Of a DNA stretch of 20,000 bases, positions 5,815 through 17,992 are shown piece after piece (position 1 is the stretch's first letter; every line of letters begins with the position of its first letter). The position numbers were made by a program, and so were the translations under genes. This DNA is from an uncultured virus (IMG/VR IMGVR_UViG_3300031758_000013) (taxonomy: Duplodnaviria; Heunggongvirae; Uroviricota; Caudoviricetes), in IMG/VR virus record IMGVR_UViG_3300031758_000013. One strand, written 5' to 3'. Under the pieces are notes generated by a model. It did not search any database and had not been told where the DNA came from. It saw only the letters and a list, made by a program, of their open reading frames with translations.

Positions 5815-6050
5815 TAATCTTAAATGATCTTGGCAAACAGAGACTGCTTTAAAGGCATCTCAGCCTAACAGTTTGTCCGTCGCTATGAGAAGATACAAAA
5901 TGAAATAACGAAGGTATCTTCCATCCATTTCCCTCTTACTGGAAATGCAAAATCATTATGGTTTCGTCAGTAGTATCTTAAAGATACTGCTCTCTAGCCC
6001 TAAGACTTGAAGCTTTGTAAGAGTCAATAGAGGTTGAACCTCCGTTGCGA
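5815..6050 (-). ncRNA. Candidate highly structured RNA / 5' leader of the cell wall hydrolase gene (family unassigned)
   Basis: Non-coding ~250 nt with at least six helices, a long-range closing helix (5957-5948 with 5832-5823) and two potential 7-bp loop pairings; starts just after TATAAATA. Confidence 0.65.
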
Positions 6051-6055
6051 TATTT

Positions 6056-6063
6056 TATTTATA
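6056..6063 (-). promoter_or_regulatory. T4-type late promoter
   Basis: Exact TATAAATA on minus strand, upstream of the structured leader and hydrolase; gp33 is present in the window. Confidence 0.85.
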
Positions 6064-6074
6064 CCATATATTAA

Positions 6075-6240
6075 GTTGCCGGATTCTGTTTCGAGGCTCC
6101 GGCGGGCCCAAGAGGTCATGCCGCTAGGCGGATACCTACAACGCTATCGTTATCGTTAGCATTTGTGTTTAATGGCAACTTTGCCAAGCAATCAGTCTCG
6201 AACCGCCCTATTCCGTCCCAGTCGATCCTATCTCACCCCC
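6075..6240 (-). ncRNA. ssrA: tmRNA coding piece (permuted two-piece, alphaproteobacterial type); tag ORF 6160-6116 = ANDNDSVVGIRLAA*
   Basis: Starts GGGGGTGAGATAGGATCGAC; tag GCT AAC GAT AAC GAT AGC GTT GTA GGT ATC CGC CTA GCG GCA TGA; terminal GCCGGA/TCCGGC stem; 3' end approximate. Confidence 0.96.
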
Positions 6241-6653
6241 GTCATAAATGATCTTGTCTTTCGACCTTGACCTTTTGCCCAACCTTCAGGAGGAATCTGA
6301 CCTTCTCTTAAACAACATTTCTGAGTTGGATCTTCTGGATTATGAAACCATCTTAATCCACCAGTTCCAGTTGGCTTAAACTCTCCGGGCTTTGGTCCAC
6401 GCCTTGCAGTTTTGTTAGCGTTTCCTTTAGCCGCGCCTCGTTTGCCAGCCTCACTTAGCATTTCCTTAACAAGTTGTTCTTTACTTATTAAGCCAGAAAG
6501 TCCCAACCATGCTAGTCGATCTTCCCATCTGCCATGTTGTTCGTAGAGAATTCTATGAGCTTCTGCATGTTCTTCAACAGTTAACTCAATCAAATTCTCT
6601 GGGTCATCAGTTCCACCCAAATACTTAGGCACTTTATGATGAATATGCTTCAC
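6228..6653 (-). CDS. HNH homing endonuclease (free-standing, mob-like) inside the tmRNA intervening segment
   Basis: HIHHKVPKYLGGTDDPENLIELTVEEHAEAH HNH motif; C-terminal WFHN...PPEGWAKG DNA-binding-type motif; GTG start with AGGAG SD. Confidence 0.92.
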   Translation of the reverse strand: MKHIHHKVPKYLGGTDDPENLIELTVEEHAEAHRILYEQHGRWEDRLAWLGLSGLISKEQLVKEMLSEAGKRGAAKGNANKTARRGPKPGEFKPTGTGGLRWFHNPEDPTQKCCLREGQIPPEGWAKGQGRKTRSFMTGVR

Positions 6654-6665
6654 TTAATCTCTCCT

Positions 6666-6689
6666 TCCTAGTTATTTATAAAACTAGGA
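6666..6689 (-). promoter_or_regulatory. Late promoter TATAAATA (6680-6673) embedded in a hairpin abutting the HNH RBS
   Basis: TCCTAGTT-TTATAAAT-AACTAGGA then AGGAGAGATTAA-GTG. Confidence 0.85.
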
Positions 6690-6711
6690 TCTTAAAGACT
6701 AAGATCACTTA

Positions 6712-6777
6712 TGGTGGAGGTGACGGGTACTGCCCCCGTGTCCTCAGAACCTTTATCGTTGATTGTCAACAACTGAT
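6712..6777 (-). ncRNA. ssrA: tmRNA acceptor piece (permuted two-piece)
   Basis: Ends GGAC-ACGGG-GGCAGTA-CCCGT-CACCTCC-A-CCA. T-loop GGCAGUA is typical of alphaproteobacterial tmRNA. CACCTCC pairs with GGGGGTG (6240-6234) giving G3.U70. 5' ATCAGTTGTTGA pairs with TCGAGACTGAT in the coding piece. Confidence 0.96.
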
Positions 6778-6783
6778 ATACTA

Positions 6784-6812
6784 TATATAATCTATTCTTG
6801 TTTAAATGTCAA
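6784..6812 (-). promoter_or_regulatory. Sigma70-type promoter of tmRNA
   Basis: TTGACA-N17-TATATA; predicted +1 near 6777, matching the start of the acceptor piece. Confidence 0.8.
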
Positions 6813-6815
6813 CAC

Positions 6816-7253
6816 TTAATTGCACCAAGATTGCTTTGCATCACCAAAATATTCTCTAGCATATCCGTTGGCAATTAACTGAGTTCGAAGACTCTTACCA
6901 TCAAGAATCATGTCACCCAGCACTCGGCCACCATACTTATCCCAATCATATAGGATATATCTAACTTTCACCGCTTTGGCCACTAGATCCTTTGTAAAGG
7001 CGCTCGCTGCTTGACCCTTTTCATCTTCTGCGGGACACTGCGCACGAAAACCTTTTTCTGGAGTATCTACACCATAGATACGAACTGAAATTTGCTTCTT
7101 AATTGGTGCTGGCACCCAGAGTGCTTCAATCTGTATAGTATCACCATCAGTTACTTTAATAACTTTGGCGTTATAAGCTTTACCAACCGGCGTCTTCTGT
7201 GCAAACACTGGAGTGGCCAGCGTCAGCGCTGCTAGAACAATAAACTTCTTCAT
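6816..7253 (-). CDS. Thermonuclease (staphylococcal nuclease-like) with signal peptide
   Basis: VIKVTDGDTI, VRIYGVDTPE, DKYGGRVLG, LIANGYAREY; N-terminus MKKFIVLAALTLATPVFA. Confidence 0.92.
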   Translation of the reverse strand: MKKFIVLAALTLATPVFAQKTPVGKAYNAKVIKVTDGDTIQIEALWVPAPIKKQISVRIYGVDTPEKGFRAQCPAEDEKGQAASAFTKDLVAKAVKVRYILYDWDKYGGRVLGDMILDGKSLRTQLIANGYAREYFGDAKQSWCN

Positions 7254-12722: not shown

Positions 12723-13574
12723 TTAAAACTCATTAATACTTTCGATAAGATTTTTAAGACGCTTCTCAATGAAATAATTGAAAAGTTTGCTGCGATCTTT
12801 TCCATTCTGAGCGACAAATTCTTCTTCGATACGATCACGAAGATCTTCAGGAATGAAGTCAAGATCTACAAGTTGCTGGTTACGAAGATAACCACGAAGC
12901 ATATGATCATCACAAAAATCTCGAGGATTCATAAGAATCCACTGATCAAGCTTCTTTTGGCTGATGGGCTTTTGACGCGATCCGACGACAAAGGTATTAT
13001 CATCAGAAAGAAAATTAGGTACTCCATCGCCAGTATCACCACGCATAATATGTTCACGAACAAATCTATCTGGATCGTTAGTGATGCGCCACTTCTTTTG
13101 TACCGGATCATACTGCTTGACGTTATTATAACGCTGTAGTTGAACGAAATCCTTATCACCAGATAAGATCAAAATTGGCTCTGATGTATTACCAAACTTA
13201 TGAACTAAAGTTCCGATGATATCATCGGCTTCAGCTCCATCGATCTGAATCACACGATATGGGAAATACTCCTTTAGTTCATCACGAACCTTATTTAGAG
13301 TATCAAAGATCTGAGACCAGTTAAGCTCAGACTTTTGTCGATTCTTACGACGATTAGCCTTATAGTAAGGAAAGATTTCACGTCGCCAGTTATTACCGGC
13401 ATCACATGTAATAATCATTTCACCAAACTGATTCTTAAACTTCATGTTATATGAACGAATCGAATTCAGAATCATATGGCGAAGAAGATCTTCTTCGAGT
13501 TCAGTATTAGTATGGTTTCCAAGTTGGACCATTAGGTTAGAAATCATCACCTGAGACAGATCGACGATAATCAT
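12723..13574 (-). CDS. rnh: T4-type RNase H (5'-3' exonuclease / flap endonuclease)
   Basis: MIIVDLSQ, NWRREIFPYYKANR, GAEADDIIG, LSGDKDFVQLQ, GDTGDGVPN. Confidence 0.96.
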   Translation of the reverse strand: MIIVDLSQVMISNLMVQLGNHTNTELEEDLLRHMILNSIRSYNMKFKNQFGEMIITCDAGNNWRREIFPYYKANRRKNRQKSELNWSQIFDTLNKVRDELKEYFPYRVIQIDGAEADDIIGTLVHKFGNTSEPILILSGDKDFVQLQRYNNVKQYDPVQKKWRITNDPDRFVREHIMRGDTGDGVPNFLSDDNTFVVGSRQKPISQKKLDQWILMNPRDFCDDHMLRGYLRNQQLVDLDFIPEDLRDRIEEEFVAQNGKDRSKLFNYFIEKRLKNLIESINEF

Positions 13575-13580
13575 GATATA

Positions 13581-13934
13581 TTACTCTTCATCAGTTGTTG
13601 GAATTTTGTATGTGTATTCGACTGTACTATCTTCATTATAACTAAAATCAAAAATATTGTCAACCATTTTATGAAAGGGATGTTCAAGACGATATTGTCT
13701 ACTTATCATAGACTTAGTTGATTCCATAATCATTGCTACATCTTTAATGAATTCATCAGAAGTAACATCAAGCCCATAAGAACCAAATAGATGAATGAAC
13801 TCAGGAACGATGTCGGCCATGACTCCTTCCACATGATCTTTTCGAGTCTGAGTTACTTTATCAACAATCTCTTCTACGGTCTGCGGAGGAGATTCGCGTT
13901 TAAATCCTGGAAATGGTATAACGTTATCTGTCAC
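13581..13934 (-). CDS. Hypothetical protein
   Basis: MTDNVIPFP N-terminus; overlaps upstream gene by GTGA. Confidence 0.8.
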   Translation of the reverse strand: MTDNVIPFPGFKRESPPQTVEEIVDKVTQTRKDHVEGVMADIVPEFIHLFGSYGLDVTSDEFIKDVAMIMESTKSMISRQYRLEHPFHKMVDNIFDFSYNEDSTVEYTYKIPTTDEE

Positions 13935-15022
13935 TTAATAATCCTTAATAGAATACATTCTTGATTAATTCTACCATTAGGCTGACTTTCCGATGTCTTT
14001 ATATTTGACATAAACGACCTCAGACCAACTCTGCCTGCTGACAAGAGTTCCGTCAGCGACTCTTCTGGCTTCCTTAGAGTCTTCGACATACTGGATTCTA
14101 CATCCCAACCAGTAAGAGTCGTTCCCTTGACTTGAATACCCGCAGGACCCACTGCTAGATATTGAATCAGTTTCCGATATTTGGTGTTGTATACCCATAG
14201 TTGCTGGCACCCAATAATTTCTGCCGGATGAGCAGAGACAATCTTAAGAGAAGGTTCTTCCTTCTGGTACTTCAGGTTCTTGACGAGATCAACAGCCGAT
14301 TTAGCTTTCTTCTCACGCGGCTTACGAACCTTTACTACCTTCTTGTTATTTAGGTAACGATCGATGTCAGCGAAGAAATTGTTCCAAAAATTAGTCCAAA
14401 ACTTTTGGCGCTTACCATACGCTTCGTTTACTTGTTCATCATTTGATAGAATCTCTTCTAACTGAGGACGATAGTGATCAGTAACAATATTTAAAATTTG
14501 AGGGTTGAGTTCATTGGCTTGGCAGAAGGTGTACATGGAGAATTCTTTACCATCCATGACCAGATCAAGCTCTTCTTCAATGTTGGTGATAATTGCATTA
14601 GCCTTATCACGAACACGAGCCTGAATATCTACTGGCTTAGCAGTATCTTCAACTTCTTCTTGCTTAACGCGTTCACCTTCAGCAAACAATAGGTCAAGCT
14701 GTTGATTAAAGAAGTTCATCGATGATTCTGAAAGTGTATTGCCATTCATCATCATACGAGCCTGCCAACCAATAGTAGTTGGAATCTTGTACTTAGAGCA
14801 ACGCTTTACAGCTTCAATTTGAGCCTTCTCAAAGCCAGACTTTTTCATGTGCTCAAGAAGCCAATCACGTGCCTTCTCATGATCATACATGTAATTATAC
14901 CAGTTGAGCGCATGAGTTGTGTCAGTGACTACAACTGGTTCTGGACCATAGTGCTTCTCATCAATCGACTTAATAACCACACGAGACTTCTGCTTTGGTT
15001 TTGCTTTCAACTTAATAGCCAT
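13931..15022 (-). CDS. Conserved hypothetical T4-like phage protein
   Basis: ALNWYNY, IIGCQQLWVYNTKYRKL, VKGTTLTGWD, KTLRKPE, NGRIN. Confidence 0.85.
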   Translation of the reverse strand: MAIKLKAKPKQKSRVVIKSIDEKHYGPEPVVVTDTTHALNWYNYMYDHEKARDWLLEHMKKSGFEKAQIEAVKRCSKYKIPTTIGWQARMMMNGNTLSESSMNFFNQQLDLLFAEGERVKQEEVEDTAKPVDIQARVRDKANAIITNIEEELDLVMDGKEFSMYTFCQANELNPQILNIVTDHYRPQLEEILSNDEQVNEAYGKRQKFWTNFWNNFFADIDRYLNNKKVVKVRKPREKKAKSAVDLVKNLKYQKEEPSLKIVSAHPAEIIGCQQLWVYNTKYRKLIQYLAVGPAGIQVKGTTLTGWDVESSMSKTLRKPEESLTELLSAGRVGLRSFMSNIKTSESQPNGRINQECILLRIIK

Positions 15023-15146
15023 TAATAATCACCTTCTTCACACGACGAAAAGATCCCTTGCCCTTCTTAGCAGGAATCAGCTTAGATTTATGTACGCGAC
15101 CAACTACTCGAGCGATCGGGTTTCTGTTTTTAAGTTCTACTTTCAT
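15012..15146 (-). CDS. ArfA-like alternative ribosome rescue factor (44 aa), not in ORF track
   Basis: MKVELKNRNPIARVVGRVHKSKLIPAKKGKGSFRRVKKVIINGY*; KKGKGS-aromatic-x-R motif and N-x-I-A start as in ArfA. Confidence 0.7.
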   Translation of the reverse strand: MKVELKNRNPIARVVGRVHKSKLIPAKKGKGSFRRVKKVIINGY

Positions 15147-15153
15147 AATATTC

Positions 15154-15182
15154 AATATATTATAGAACATAAAAAATGTCAA
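15154..15182 (-). promoter_or_regulatory. Sigma70-type promoter giving a probable leaderless mRNA
   Basis: TTGACA-N17-TATATT with 7 nt between the -10 box and ATG 15146; no SD. Confidence 0.8.
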
Positions 15183-15766
15183 CCACTATTTTTCGTGCGA
15201 AGATATTTTGCGATCATATGCATAATTGCTTGGTGCACATCTTCAGTTGCTTCGTATTCATGAATATCTACATGAATAGAAATATCAGCTAACTCGCGAG
15301 CTTTGCCTCCATTAAATCCAGTCAGAGCAATAGTTTTCATCTTGAGTTCTTTTGCTTTTTCTAAAGCTTTTACAACGTTGGGTGAATTACCACTTGAAGA
15401 GATAGCCACTAAAATATCATCTGGTCTACCAAGCTTATCTATCTGAAAGGAATAGACATCATCAAACGAGATATCATTGCCAATTGCAGTCATGAGTGGA
15501 ATATTAGCAGCGAGTGAAATTACACGTGGCTTAAAGTTAAGACGAGAACATCCCTTTGTATAGTCACAGGCCCAGTGCTGAGCAATTGCAGCAGATGCGC
15601 CATTTCCAATTGTAAAGATATTATTATAATAGTGAGTGAGTGATGCGATATAGATTAGATCTGCCGCCTTTTGAACTTGCCGGCGATCTACAGAATCAAA
15701 TCCATATTTGATAGTCTGAACGTGCTGATCATAGATAATATCTAGAAGATTAATCTCTGTAGACAA
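15179..15766 (-). CDS. gmhA: Phosphoheptose isomerase (SIS domain)
   Basis: IFTIGNGASAAIAQH, MTAIGND, AISSSGNSPNVVKA, ALTGFNGG, TEDVH; TTG start at 15766 with AAGGAG SD. Confidence 0.88.
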   Translation of the reverse strand: MSTEINLLDIIYDQHVQTIKYGFDSVDRRQVQKAADLIYIASLTHYYNNIFTIGNGASAAIAQHWACDYTKGCSRLNFKPRVISLAANIPLMTAIGNDISFDDVYSFQIDKLGRPDDILVAISSSGNSPNVVKALEKAKELKMKTIALTGFNGGKARELADISIHVDIHEYEATEDVHQAIMHMIAKYLRTKNSG

Positions 15767-16700
15767 TTCTTGCTCCTTCGTGTGAAATACCCACATCAAG
15801 ACAGGTACGATCTGAGAACTCGTGTCGAATCTTTTCTTTAGATTCTGTGAGAGCTAGTATATAACCACCTCCACCAGCACCTAACAATTTAGCACCAAGT
15901 GCTTCTGCTTCTTTACACCGTTCATACATATTATCTATATCGTTATTCGATATTTCATTACTCATTTGTTTCTTAAGAACCCAAGCAGAATTAAGAAGTC
16001 GACCGTATTCAAGTGGATTTACTTTTTGAGTGCCTTGCATCTCTGCTATACGAGCGAGTTCACGAATAGTAAAAGTCTTAGCTTCAAAATTAATACTATC
16101 TAAAATCTTAGATGCATGATGTTCCATATTTGTAGGAATCAAAATCATATAGTTCTCGATACTATTCGAATCAAGGCGCTTTACATCAACTCTTCCTTGG
16201 CCAAGATCATTAGCGTACTCAATGTAGTTCATACCACCAAATGCAGATGCAAACTGATCTTGCATGCCAATATTCCAGCCACACAAATCAATTTCAATAT
16301 GGCATGCAGTTTTTGCTACTCCATATGGATTTATATATTCATAACCAAGGTATGCACTGAGCGCCTTGACAAGAGCACACGCAAACGCTGACGATCCACC
16401 AAGACCATTTCCAATCGTCGGAATATCTGCAAATGAAGTGATTTCAATATTTGACTTAATACCAAAAAACTTGAGAGCATTACGAACAATATCGTTCTGA
16501 ATATCTTCTACATTTGTCACAAGTTCTTGTTTTGAATAAGATACTTTAATGTGTTTATGTGGTGTCTGCATGACTGCTACGTAGACATACTTATCAATAG
16601 CAGTAGAGATTGTAGCGCCACCCCATTGAGCAAAGTGAGTAGGAATATCACTACCCCCACCGAAAAAACTAACTCTGAGTGGTGCCTTGGATAAGATCAC
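15750..16700 (-). CDS. hddA: GHMP kinase, D-glycero-alpha-D-manno-heptose 7-phosphate kinase-like
   Basis: APLRVSFFGGGSD, GNGLGGSSAF, GMQDQFASAFGGMN, GAKLLGAGGGGY. Confidence 0.88.
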   Translation of the reverse strand: MILSKAPLRVSFFGGGSDIPTHFAQWGGATISTAIDKYVYVAVMQTPHKHIKVSYSKQELVTNVEDIQNDIVRNALKFFGIKSNIEITSFADIPTIGNGLGGSSAFACALVKALSAYLGYEYINPYGVAKTACHIEIDLCGWNIGMQDQFASAFGGMNYIEYANDLGQGRVDVKRLDSNSIENYMILIPTNMEHHASKILDSINFEAKTFTIRELARIAEMQGTQKVNPLEYGRLLNSAWVLKKQMSNEISNNDIDNMYERCKEAEALGAKLLGAGGGGYILALTESKEKIRHEFSDRTCLDVGISHEGARIVYRD

Positions 16701-17658
16701 GGTGTTGTTCCTTTAATGATGCAATAAGACCCTTCCACTTCGGCATAATTGATTCCCAAGAGAATCGAGTATCAGTATAAGTTTTAATAAAACTTAGAAG
16801 GTTTGTTAAGTCATTATTTTGTATGTTTTCAATAGCATACATAAGAGTATGAGCGAAAATATTAGCATGAAGATTTTGATCTTCATGATCTCCATCATAT
16901 TGTACTGTTAGACCACCACATGTATCAGAAAGAGCAGAGAAGTTAGGGTGAACAGCCAAACAACCAGCAGACATAGCCTCGATAAGAGATCTGCATGAGG
17001 TTTCAGGCCAGATACAAGGGTATGCAAAAATGTGTGCTCTTTGATATGCTGCACGAACTGTCTCCTGATCTGCCCAACCATGATAGTTAATTTGTGGGTG
17101 TTCTTTCATTCTCTTGAAGAGAGGTTCATATTGTTGATCTCTGCTTTCCCAGCCTGGACCATAGATACCAAACGATGAGAAAACATCTAGTTCAATGTTT
17201 GGATACCGTTCAGCTAAAGCACAGAACACAGGAACTAGAATCTCTAGTCCACGATGAGGTGTGGATGTATAAATGAGACGTATCTTATCCTTTGGCTTTT
17301 CAACAAATGGAATTGGTTCAACACCAGTTTCAATAACTGATGACTGATGACTATATGGAACTCCAAGATAGTCACGATACTGTTGATATTGCCAGTTGCT
17401 GCTAAAGACCAACTTATCAAAGCGTTCTCTTGAAGCCGGGTCTTTAAGATGTGCAGCTTCTGGGTCGAGAGGTAAATCGTGGAGATGATAGATCTTAATT
17501 CGGTTAGGATCAAGGTCGCGGACGCGAGCAGTGATAATTTGAATACCATCGAGCTCTTCCCTTGTAAGTCGATTGAAGAGGCCTCGTGTGGTAAGTTCTG
17601 TTCCACCATTCGACTCCTTGTTGAGCTCATTCAATTCAATTAGATCTTCATTATTCAT
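16669..17658 (-). CDS. Glycosyltransferase, GT-B fold (GT4-like)
   Basis: GGTE, LIYTSTPHRGL, FAYPCIWPETSCRSLIEAMSAG; ATG 17658 (MNNEDL) preferred. Confidence 0.9.
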   Translation of the reverse strand: MNNEDLIELNELNKESNGGTELTTRGLFNRLTREELDGIQIITARVRDLDPNRIKIYHLHDLPLDPEAAHLKDPASRERFDKLVFSSNWQYQQYRDYLGVPYSHQSSVIETGVEPIPFVEKPKDKIRLIYTSTPHRGLEILVPVFCALAERYPNIELDVFSSFGIYGPGWESRDQQYEPLFKRMKEHPQINYHGWADQETVRAAYQRAHIFAYPCIWPETSCRSLIEAMSAGCLAVHPNFSALSDTCGGLTVQYDGDHEDQNLHANIFAHTLMYAIENIQNNDLTNLLSFIKTYTDTRFSWESIMPKWKGLIASLKEQHRDLIQGTTQS

Positions 17659-17992
17659 CAATATCTCCGATAAATTCACGGTCAGCAAGGAAGAAGTACT
17701 CTTTATCATTGAAAGCTTTATCATCGATCCATATATCGTATGACGGCTTTCCTAGACGAACTTCGTGGAACTTGCATCCCCAGTCATTTAGTTGTTGGTT
17801 GGTAAGTTCGGTCCAGTCGATTCCCGACCCTGAACCACGGGCAGTCCAATAGATGATGGTGTGCCCTTGATCGTATAGTTTATTTATCTCTTCGATACGA
17901 TGATAGAATGGGATGGACATATCATAACGATGTACATCATTGATCTTAGGTGTCAGACAAACAGTCTGGTCAATGTCTACCATATAGATCAT
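17651..17992 (-). CDS. Small HAD-superfamily phosphatase (capsule-biosynthesis type)
   Basis: VDIDQTV, IYWTARG, GKPSYDIWIDDKA. Confidence 0.88.
   Translation of the reverse strand: MIYMVDIDQTVCLTPKINDVHRYDMSIPFYHRIEEINKLYDQGHTIIYWTARGSGSGIDWTELTNQQLNDWGCKFHEVRLGKPSYDIWIDDKAFNDKEYFFLADREFIGDIDE

Follow-up and report, generated by a model that had tools for sequence, protein, structure and literature searches.

An ArfA-like gene with its own stop codon and a probably leaderless message in a T4-like phage that also carries a tmRNA gene

The window, a 20,000-nucleotide stretch of DNA from an uncultured virus (IMG/VR IMGVR_UViG_3300031758_000013), is the early/replication region of a T4-like phage, with genes for gp32, a helicase loader, PhoH, exonucleases and S-adenosylmethionine decarboxylase as well as a row of sugar-nucleotide genes. 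This row (15179..17992, minus strand) lies directly upstream of a small ArfA-like gene and encodes a SIS-domain (phosphoheptose-isomerase-like) protein, a GHMP kinase, a glycosyltransferase and a second isomerase/phosphatase-like protein; it is conserved in three related viral loci, L002, L006 and L007. The features discussed below are as follows.

6074..6816, minus strand: two-piece (permuted) tmRNA gene (Rfam RF04321, 79.9 bits; RF01849, alpha_tmRNA, 62 bits)
13931..15022, minus strand: downstream gene of 363 aa, phrog_11903 (E 2.4e-84), function unknown
15012..15022, minus strand: 11 nt, ATGGCTATTAA, in which the last codons of the ArfA-like gene overlap the start of the 363-aa gene
15012..15146, minus strand: ArfA-like gene, 44 codons plus a TAA stop
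15154..15182, minus strand: sigma-70-type promoter, TTGACA-17-TATATT, 11 of 12 matches to consensus

An earlier note on this DNA had placed an ArfA-like rescue factor at 15012..15182, a span that matches the minus-strand ORF when it is read from a TTG codon to give 56 amino acids. Because the TTG start in the ORF list belongs to the promoter, the 56-aa reading is an artefact, and it was discarded together with a 52-aa reading, the additional upstream codons being promoter sequence. The 44-aa basic ORF that the same note described is present: it begins with ATG at 15146, encodes MKVELKNRNPIARVVGRVHKSKLIPAKKGKGSFRRVKKVIINGY and ends in frame with TAA at 15014..15012, which is the real stop codon that had been claimed. 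The protein contains 14 Lys/Arg residues and a single acidic residue, and both reported motifs, NPIA and KKGKGSFRR, are found in it. In related loci, an in-frame stop lies three codons (L006, L007, L009 and L010) or two codons (L014 and L016) before the conserved ATG, which is therefore the sole possible start there.

The near-consensus promoter said to stand directly before the ORF was also located, at 15182..15154, with the TGA stop of the upstream SIS gene falling within its −35 box. A gap of 7 nt separates the end of its −10 box from the ATG, so that a transcript leader of 0–2 nt is predicted, and the ArfA-like mRNA would probably be leaderless or nearly so. A −10-to-ATG spacing of 5–7 nt occurs at 9 of the 16 loci examined, as found by script in the window, L002, L006, L007, L008, L009 and L010, and by eye and score in L014 and L016 (TATAAG); it was not seen in L011, L013, L017–L020 or Caulobacter phage Cr30. 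As a control on this geometry, every ATG triplet in the window and seven loci, 3340 in total, was scored. A promoter with at least 10 of 12 matches stood at this spacing before five of them, three of which are ArfA-like starts, and the sole 11/12 promoter was that of the window's ArfA-like gene. The window, L002, L006 and L007 share ancestry across the whole region. Upstream sequence is unrelated in L008, L009/L010, L014 and L016, where the promoters score 8, 7, 8 and 9, values reached at background frequencies of 4.6%, 17%, 4.6% and 1.0%, respectively. A Shine-Dalgarno-like motif is missing from 8 of the 21 minus-strand genes checked, so its absence is not special in itself.

At its other end, the ArfA-like gene runs into the next one, its stop codon overlapping the ATG of the 363-aa gene, and the KKV codons upstream of the overlap, AAGAAGGTG, make a Shine-Dalgarno-like site for that gene. 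The overlap layout is identical in L006 and L007, and the two genes are probably co-transcribed. The downstream gene has relatives in the T4-like phages Cr30, phiM12 and DLP_6 and is syntenic in L002, L006 and L007. Farther along the same strand, a perfect 12/12 sigma-70 promoter, TTGACA-17-TATAAT (13635..13663), sits inside the gene at 13581..13934, about 60 nt upstream of an exonuclease gene that starts at 13574.

The ORF at 15012..15146 is a genuine conserved gene. Eight metagenome proteins are 73–100% identical to the 44-aa protein, and relatives are encoded at 20 IMG/VR loci. Over 31 core codons from the window, L001, L002 and L006–L009, Nei-Gojobori dN/dS was 0.05–0.25 in 18 of 21 pairs, with one pair identical and two saturated at synonymous sites. 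As the peptide has been kept while synonymous sites are near saturation, it is under selection, and a chance ORF is ruled out by these ratios. On viral contigs the gene occurs in at least four distinct genomic contexts. The window's order of sugar genes, ArfA-like gene, phrog_11903 gene and exonuclease is common to L002, L006 and L007 and only partly kept in L008 and L010; L011, L013, L014, L016 and L017 have no neighbor in common with the window's gene, and in L018 and L020 it adjoins an endolysin-like gene. These varied neighbors indicate that the ArfA-like gene moves as a unit of its own.

PHROGs has no family for the 44-aa protein, and megablast of 2.9 kb against a phage collection gave zero matches. 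With tblastn against phages, the 44-aa protein found weak matches alone (E of 1 or more) and the L018 protein none, both searches being limited by short length and low-complexity filtering. A scan of genome contigs with profile A2 found six loci, none alphaproteobacterial, in Ignavibacteria-type, Bacilli, Mollicutes and Carnobacterium records; the scan relies on one exact peptide pattern and is weak evidence of absence. Parts of the stretch were present in 20 DNA sequencing entries, labeled mostly 'fungus metagenome' (9) and freshwater/lake water (8); none of the runs listed as containing it was of RNA.

The Pfam ArfA model (PF03889) matches the window protein with an E-value of 1.1e-4 over profile positions 17–42 of 44. 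The HMM check that the earlier note had called for thus came out in favor of ArfA by E-value, yet the score of 22.0 bits is below the gathering threshold of 25.5 bits. That cut-off is passed by relatives, namely L020 (29.1 bits) and ORFs of Cr30 (27.2) and an Erythrobacter phage (33), and 13 of 17 phage relatives match ArfA at E ≤ 0.01. When a 17-sequence phage profile was run against 1.84 billion proteins, it gathered 183 clusters at E ≤ 0.001 (50% identity representatives). Among 149 collected family members, 106 match ArfA at E ≤ 0.001, and their profile (A3) found ArfA in all six of the distinct PDB sequences it matched (best E 2.9e-9).

Neither the window protein nor A1, the narrow 8-sequence profile of its clade, found an ArfA chain in the PDB, A1 having no matches at all. 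The connection runs through A5, a set of 25 ArfA-like family members from outside that clade. A1 aligns to A5 with an hhalign probability of 98.5% (E 2e-15) over 38 columns, comprising window residues 1–38, and A5 matches E. coli ArfA alone in the PDB (E 5.1e-12). ArfA homology is therefore supported as solid but transitive, via intermediate profiles, and at this profile level the ArfA-like identity first suggested for the peptide holds.

The stop-less mRNA of bacterial arfA arises from a stem-loop and places the gene under tmRNA repression (PMC8012679). In such a message a stem-loop, an RNase III site or a terminator lies inside the ORF. At the phage locus, the 217-nt mRNA stretch from the ATG is predicted to have no stable fold, as 189 of 200 shuffles fold at least as well (z +1.45), and the coding strand shows no terminator-like site within the ORF or beyond it. 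Given a real stop codon and no predicted hairpin, the protein should be made regardless of tmRNA activity, unlike bacterial ArfA; the earlier proposal that the phage version escapes tmRNA control is in this respect supported in silico.

The ssrA gene that had been paired with it is real, as Rfam places a permuted tmRNA within the window; ARAGORN detected no tmRNA gene there. Its tag reading frame is ANDNDSVVGIRLAA. Two-piece tmRNAs are known from Alphaproteobacteria, from part of the Betaproteobacteria and from a single cyanobacterial lineage. Here the loop that separates the acceptor piece from the coding piece has an insert of about 430–470 nt (~6241..6680), and the ORF that the insert carries (6228..6653) has weak HNH/homing-endonuclease matches; the tmRNAs of two relatives, L022 and L023, are without the insert. 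A staphylococcal-nuclease-like gene (6816..7253, minus strand; Pfam SNase, E 5.4e-11) abuts the 5′ side of the tmRNA gene.

Located 8 kb away and not physically linked, the tmRNA gene is a possible functional companion of the ArfA-like gene. Two of five related viral records, G002 and G003, carry the same tmRNA about 10 kb from their ArfA-like gene, in both cases as 247 nt without the insert. The other three ArfA-bearing records, one of them rated complete, have no tmRNA. Neither SmpB nor release-factor domains were found in any of the five, all but one of which are fragments, so the toolkit would be limited to tmRNA and ArfA, with SmpB and RF2 drawn from the host. Of the phage ribosome-rescue toolkit proposed in the earlier note, then, the co-occurrence of tmRNA and ArfA-like gene stands, but SmpB and release-factor components were not found in these five records.

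Several signals bear on the host. Among cultured phages, the downstream gene is closest to genes of Caulobacter phage Cr30 and of Stenotrophomonas, Ochrobactrum and Sinorhizobium phages, gp32 is best matched by cyanomyoviruses (~60% identity), and the tmRNA by an alphaproteobacterial Rfam model. The cyanophage marker psbA was absent from all three records searched, each a fragment. Alphaproteobacteria or cyanobacteria would be the likely host classes. In a survey of 15,259 genomes, ArfA is described as confined to Gammaproteobacteria, some Betaproteobacteria and a few Bacillus, with arfA counted in 0 of 2,376 Alphaproteobacteria, 0 of 162 Cyanobacteriota, 37 of 1,000 Betaproteobacteria and 699 of 2,704 Gammaproteobacteria (PMC11633108). 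The same text reports that ArfB and trans-translation are synthetically lethal in Caulobacter (PMC11633108).

Some cultured phages carry the gene as well. An unannotated ArfA-like ORF is present in Caulobacter phage Cr30 (KF301602.1; L024, 2447..2599) at 27.2 bits, above the Pfam cut-off, and another in Erythrobacter phage vB_EliS-L02 (OL955261.1; L031, 553..723) at 33 bits. In a different frame, the Cr30 ORF shares sequence with the end of the gene before it, and its TGA runs into the ATG of the gene that follows. Roseobacter phages gave weak tblastn matches. In one of them, CRP-1 (MK613343.1; L032, 547..729), the ORF is ArfA-like in its N-terminal half (INPVARALL...PQVVPPKKG) but has KKGNKRK where KKGKGS would stand; it lies across the annotated gp04 in a different frame, and Pfam gave it no match. 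On an AT-rich viral contig, L017, the ArfA-like protein (5989..6150) is longer, at 53 aa read from a TTG, and its tail is non-basic; a strong terminator-like hairpin (6207..6232) follows about 55 nt after the stop, a layout unlike the window's.

Alignments chained across the intermediate profiles place window residues 1–44 on E. coli ArfA residues 6–50, a span that takes in the helix, the beta-strand segment and the channel tail, as mapped here.

window N9: E. coli ArfA N14
window I11: E. coli ArfA I16
window R13: E. coli ArfA A18
window V14-V15: E. coli ArfA L19-L20
window one-residue gap: E. coli ArfA P23
window V18: E. coli ArfA L24
window H19: E. coli ArfA F25
window S21-I24: E. coli ArfA Q27-E30
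window K27-S32: E. coli ArfA K33-S38
window R35: E. coli ArfA R41
window K38-V39: E. coli ArfA K44-H45
window Y44: E. coli ArfA N50

According to PMC8012679, residues 15–24 of E. coli ArfA form a helix at the decoding center, F25 and the Q27-E30 strand, which adds to the RF2 beta-sheet, hold RF2, and the basic tail fills the mRNA channel, where a KH motif common to ArfA and BrfA binds a pocket. The same text reports that ArfA cut to 40 residues is inactive and that A18T blocks RF2 activation (PMC8012679). The window protein has the KKGKGS(Y/F)xR motif at residues 27–35, and its basic tail reaches past E. coli residue 40, the inactive truncation length, its C-terminus aligning to residue 50. 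The segment aligned to the strand, S21-K22-L23-I24, has conserved hydrophobic residues, and His19 aligns to Phe25. The KH motif is absent, replaced by K38-V39, and is kept in L018–L020. At the position aligned with Ala18, Lys/Arg is the family consensus, even in members that match ArfA well. A complex prediction with Caulobacter RF2 (RF2_CAUVC) and alignment A2, run without controls, scored 0.00 and carries no weight either way.

These substitutions (KV for KH, Arg at the Ala18-aligned and His at the Phe25-aligned position), together with the score below the Pfam cut-off, could mean that the peptide keeps a ribosome-docking tail without activating RF2. It would then occupy empty mRNA channels and modulate or block host tmRNA-SmpB, ArfB or the translation of damaged host messages. 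We consider this unlikely, since the clade conserves both the RNPIA block and the strand-like segment ahead of PAKKGKGS with little or no change, and a pure channel plug would have no need of either. Furthermore, Lys/Arg at the Ala18-aligned site, as the family consensus, may be a matter of alignment or lineage and need not signal lost function, and the phage's own tmRNA argues against blocked trans-translation. The differences at RF2-contact residues would also suit a rescue factor of ArfA descent that works with another partner, be it RF1, both release factors (as ArfT does) or a host-specific factor. The absence of ArfA from the likely host classes, with counts of 0 of 2,376 for Alphaproteobacteria and 0 of 162 for Cyanobacteriota (PMC11633108), points the same way; however, the homologous segment spans the RF2-binding strand of ArfA and nothing positive speaks for a different partner, which makes this quite improbable in our view. 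It is very improbable that the ORF serves mainly to bring ribosomes to the 363-aa gene, as a short upstream cistron translationally coupled to it whose peptide matters little, for although the 11-nt stop/start overlap, the KKV codons doubling as a Shine-Dalgarno-like site and the conservation of this arrangement in L002, L006 and L007 would fit such a role, the peptide is under strong purifying selection, is homologous to ArfA and is found without that downstream gene in L011, L013, L014 and L016–L020.

The gene is a phage-specific ArfA homolog, short, with its own stop codon and probably a leaderless message. The fuller reading, that it encodes an early, RF2-recruiting and tmRNA-independent rescue factor, transcribed from a host-type promoter at the front of an mRNA with almost no leader, we hold to be somewhat better than an even bet; expression, ribosome binding, RF2 recruitment and a benefit to the phage we infer from sequence. 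Early in infection, the host-type promoter would drive the gene at the head of its message, and the protein would be made irrespective of tmRNA activity. On ribosomes stalled at the 3′ ends of broken messages, the empty mRNA channel would take up the basic C-terminal half of the protein, KKGKGSFRRVKK, while the N-terminal half (RNPIARVV...KLIP) would dock host release factor 2, which would then cut the nascent chain free. Together with the phage's own tmRNA, this would raise the ribosome-recycling capacity of the infected cell on occasions such as the degradation of host mRNA or the cutting of messages by host nucleases.

A wider proposal is offered tentatively, as we think it more apt to be wrong than right: T4-like and other phages whose likely hosts lack ArfA may import an always-on version of it, with a stop codon, no hairpin, no leader and an early promoter, paired in the present lineage with a phage tmRNA. 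If true, infection would install in the host a second, unregulated ribosome-rescue route that it does not otherwise have. By this route ribosomes could stay available during the destruction of host mRNA, or host defenses that cut mRNA or make stop-less messages could be blunted. Ribosome rescue already touches phage defense, as ArfA is the proposed factor for freeing Neo, the stop-less protein of DRT2 (PMC11100668). A phage copy free of stop-less/tmRNA control would show viruses retooling ribosome rescue for infection. The hosts of the cultured relatives, Caulobacter, Erythrobacter and Roseobacter, are bacteria without ArfA, and the Cr30 homolog makes the idea directly testable, Caulobacter being a laboratory model. 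The family is large (183 clusters) and often missed by gene callers, going unannotated in two GenBank phage records.

The closest known counterpart is E. coli ArfA (YhdL; PF03889; PDB 5H5U, 5U4I, 5MDV, 5MGP and 7OJ0), which the window protein resembles in being small and basic and in having an N-x-I motif about 18 residues ahead of KKGKGS(Y/F)xR. The spacing between the two motifs is one residue shorter in the window protein, and its N-terminus is five residues shorter. Unlike E. coli ArfA, it is phage-borne, has 44 amino acids, a real stop codon and no predicted 3′ hairpin, and carries KV for KH, Arg13 at the Ala18 site and His19 at the Phe25 site. BrfA of Bacillus subtilis and ArfT of Francisella are likewise small, basic and able to bring release factors to non-stop ribosomes and, according to PMC8012679, have no detectable sequence relationship to ArfA beyond the KH motif; unlike them, the window protein is an ArfA homolog and is without KH. 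Part of the ArfA-like family also matches DUF7230 (PF23876), an unnamed family of small proteins of which we found no mention in the literature searched. The matches (30 of 149 members at E ≤ 0.001; 4 of 17 close relatives at E ≤ 0.01) cover the N-terminal RNPIA half of relatives, and the window protein itself has none at E ≤ 10.

Phage-borne ArfA itself is not new in print. Pelagiphage HTVC027P gp30 (PMC12753301) and Citromicrobium phage RXM g10 (PMC8953757) are already annotated as ArfA; our comparison with them is by annotation only, and the available portions of both papers report no functional test. Nor did the literature searched yield a functional study of a phage ArfA. Unlike these two entries, the gene described here lies in a T4-like phage, in company with a tmRNA gene and behind a promoter predicted to leave it no leader.
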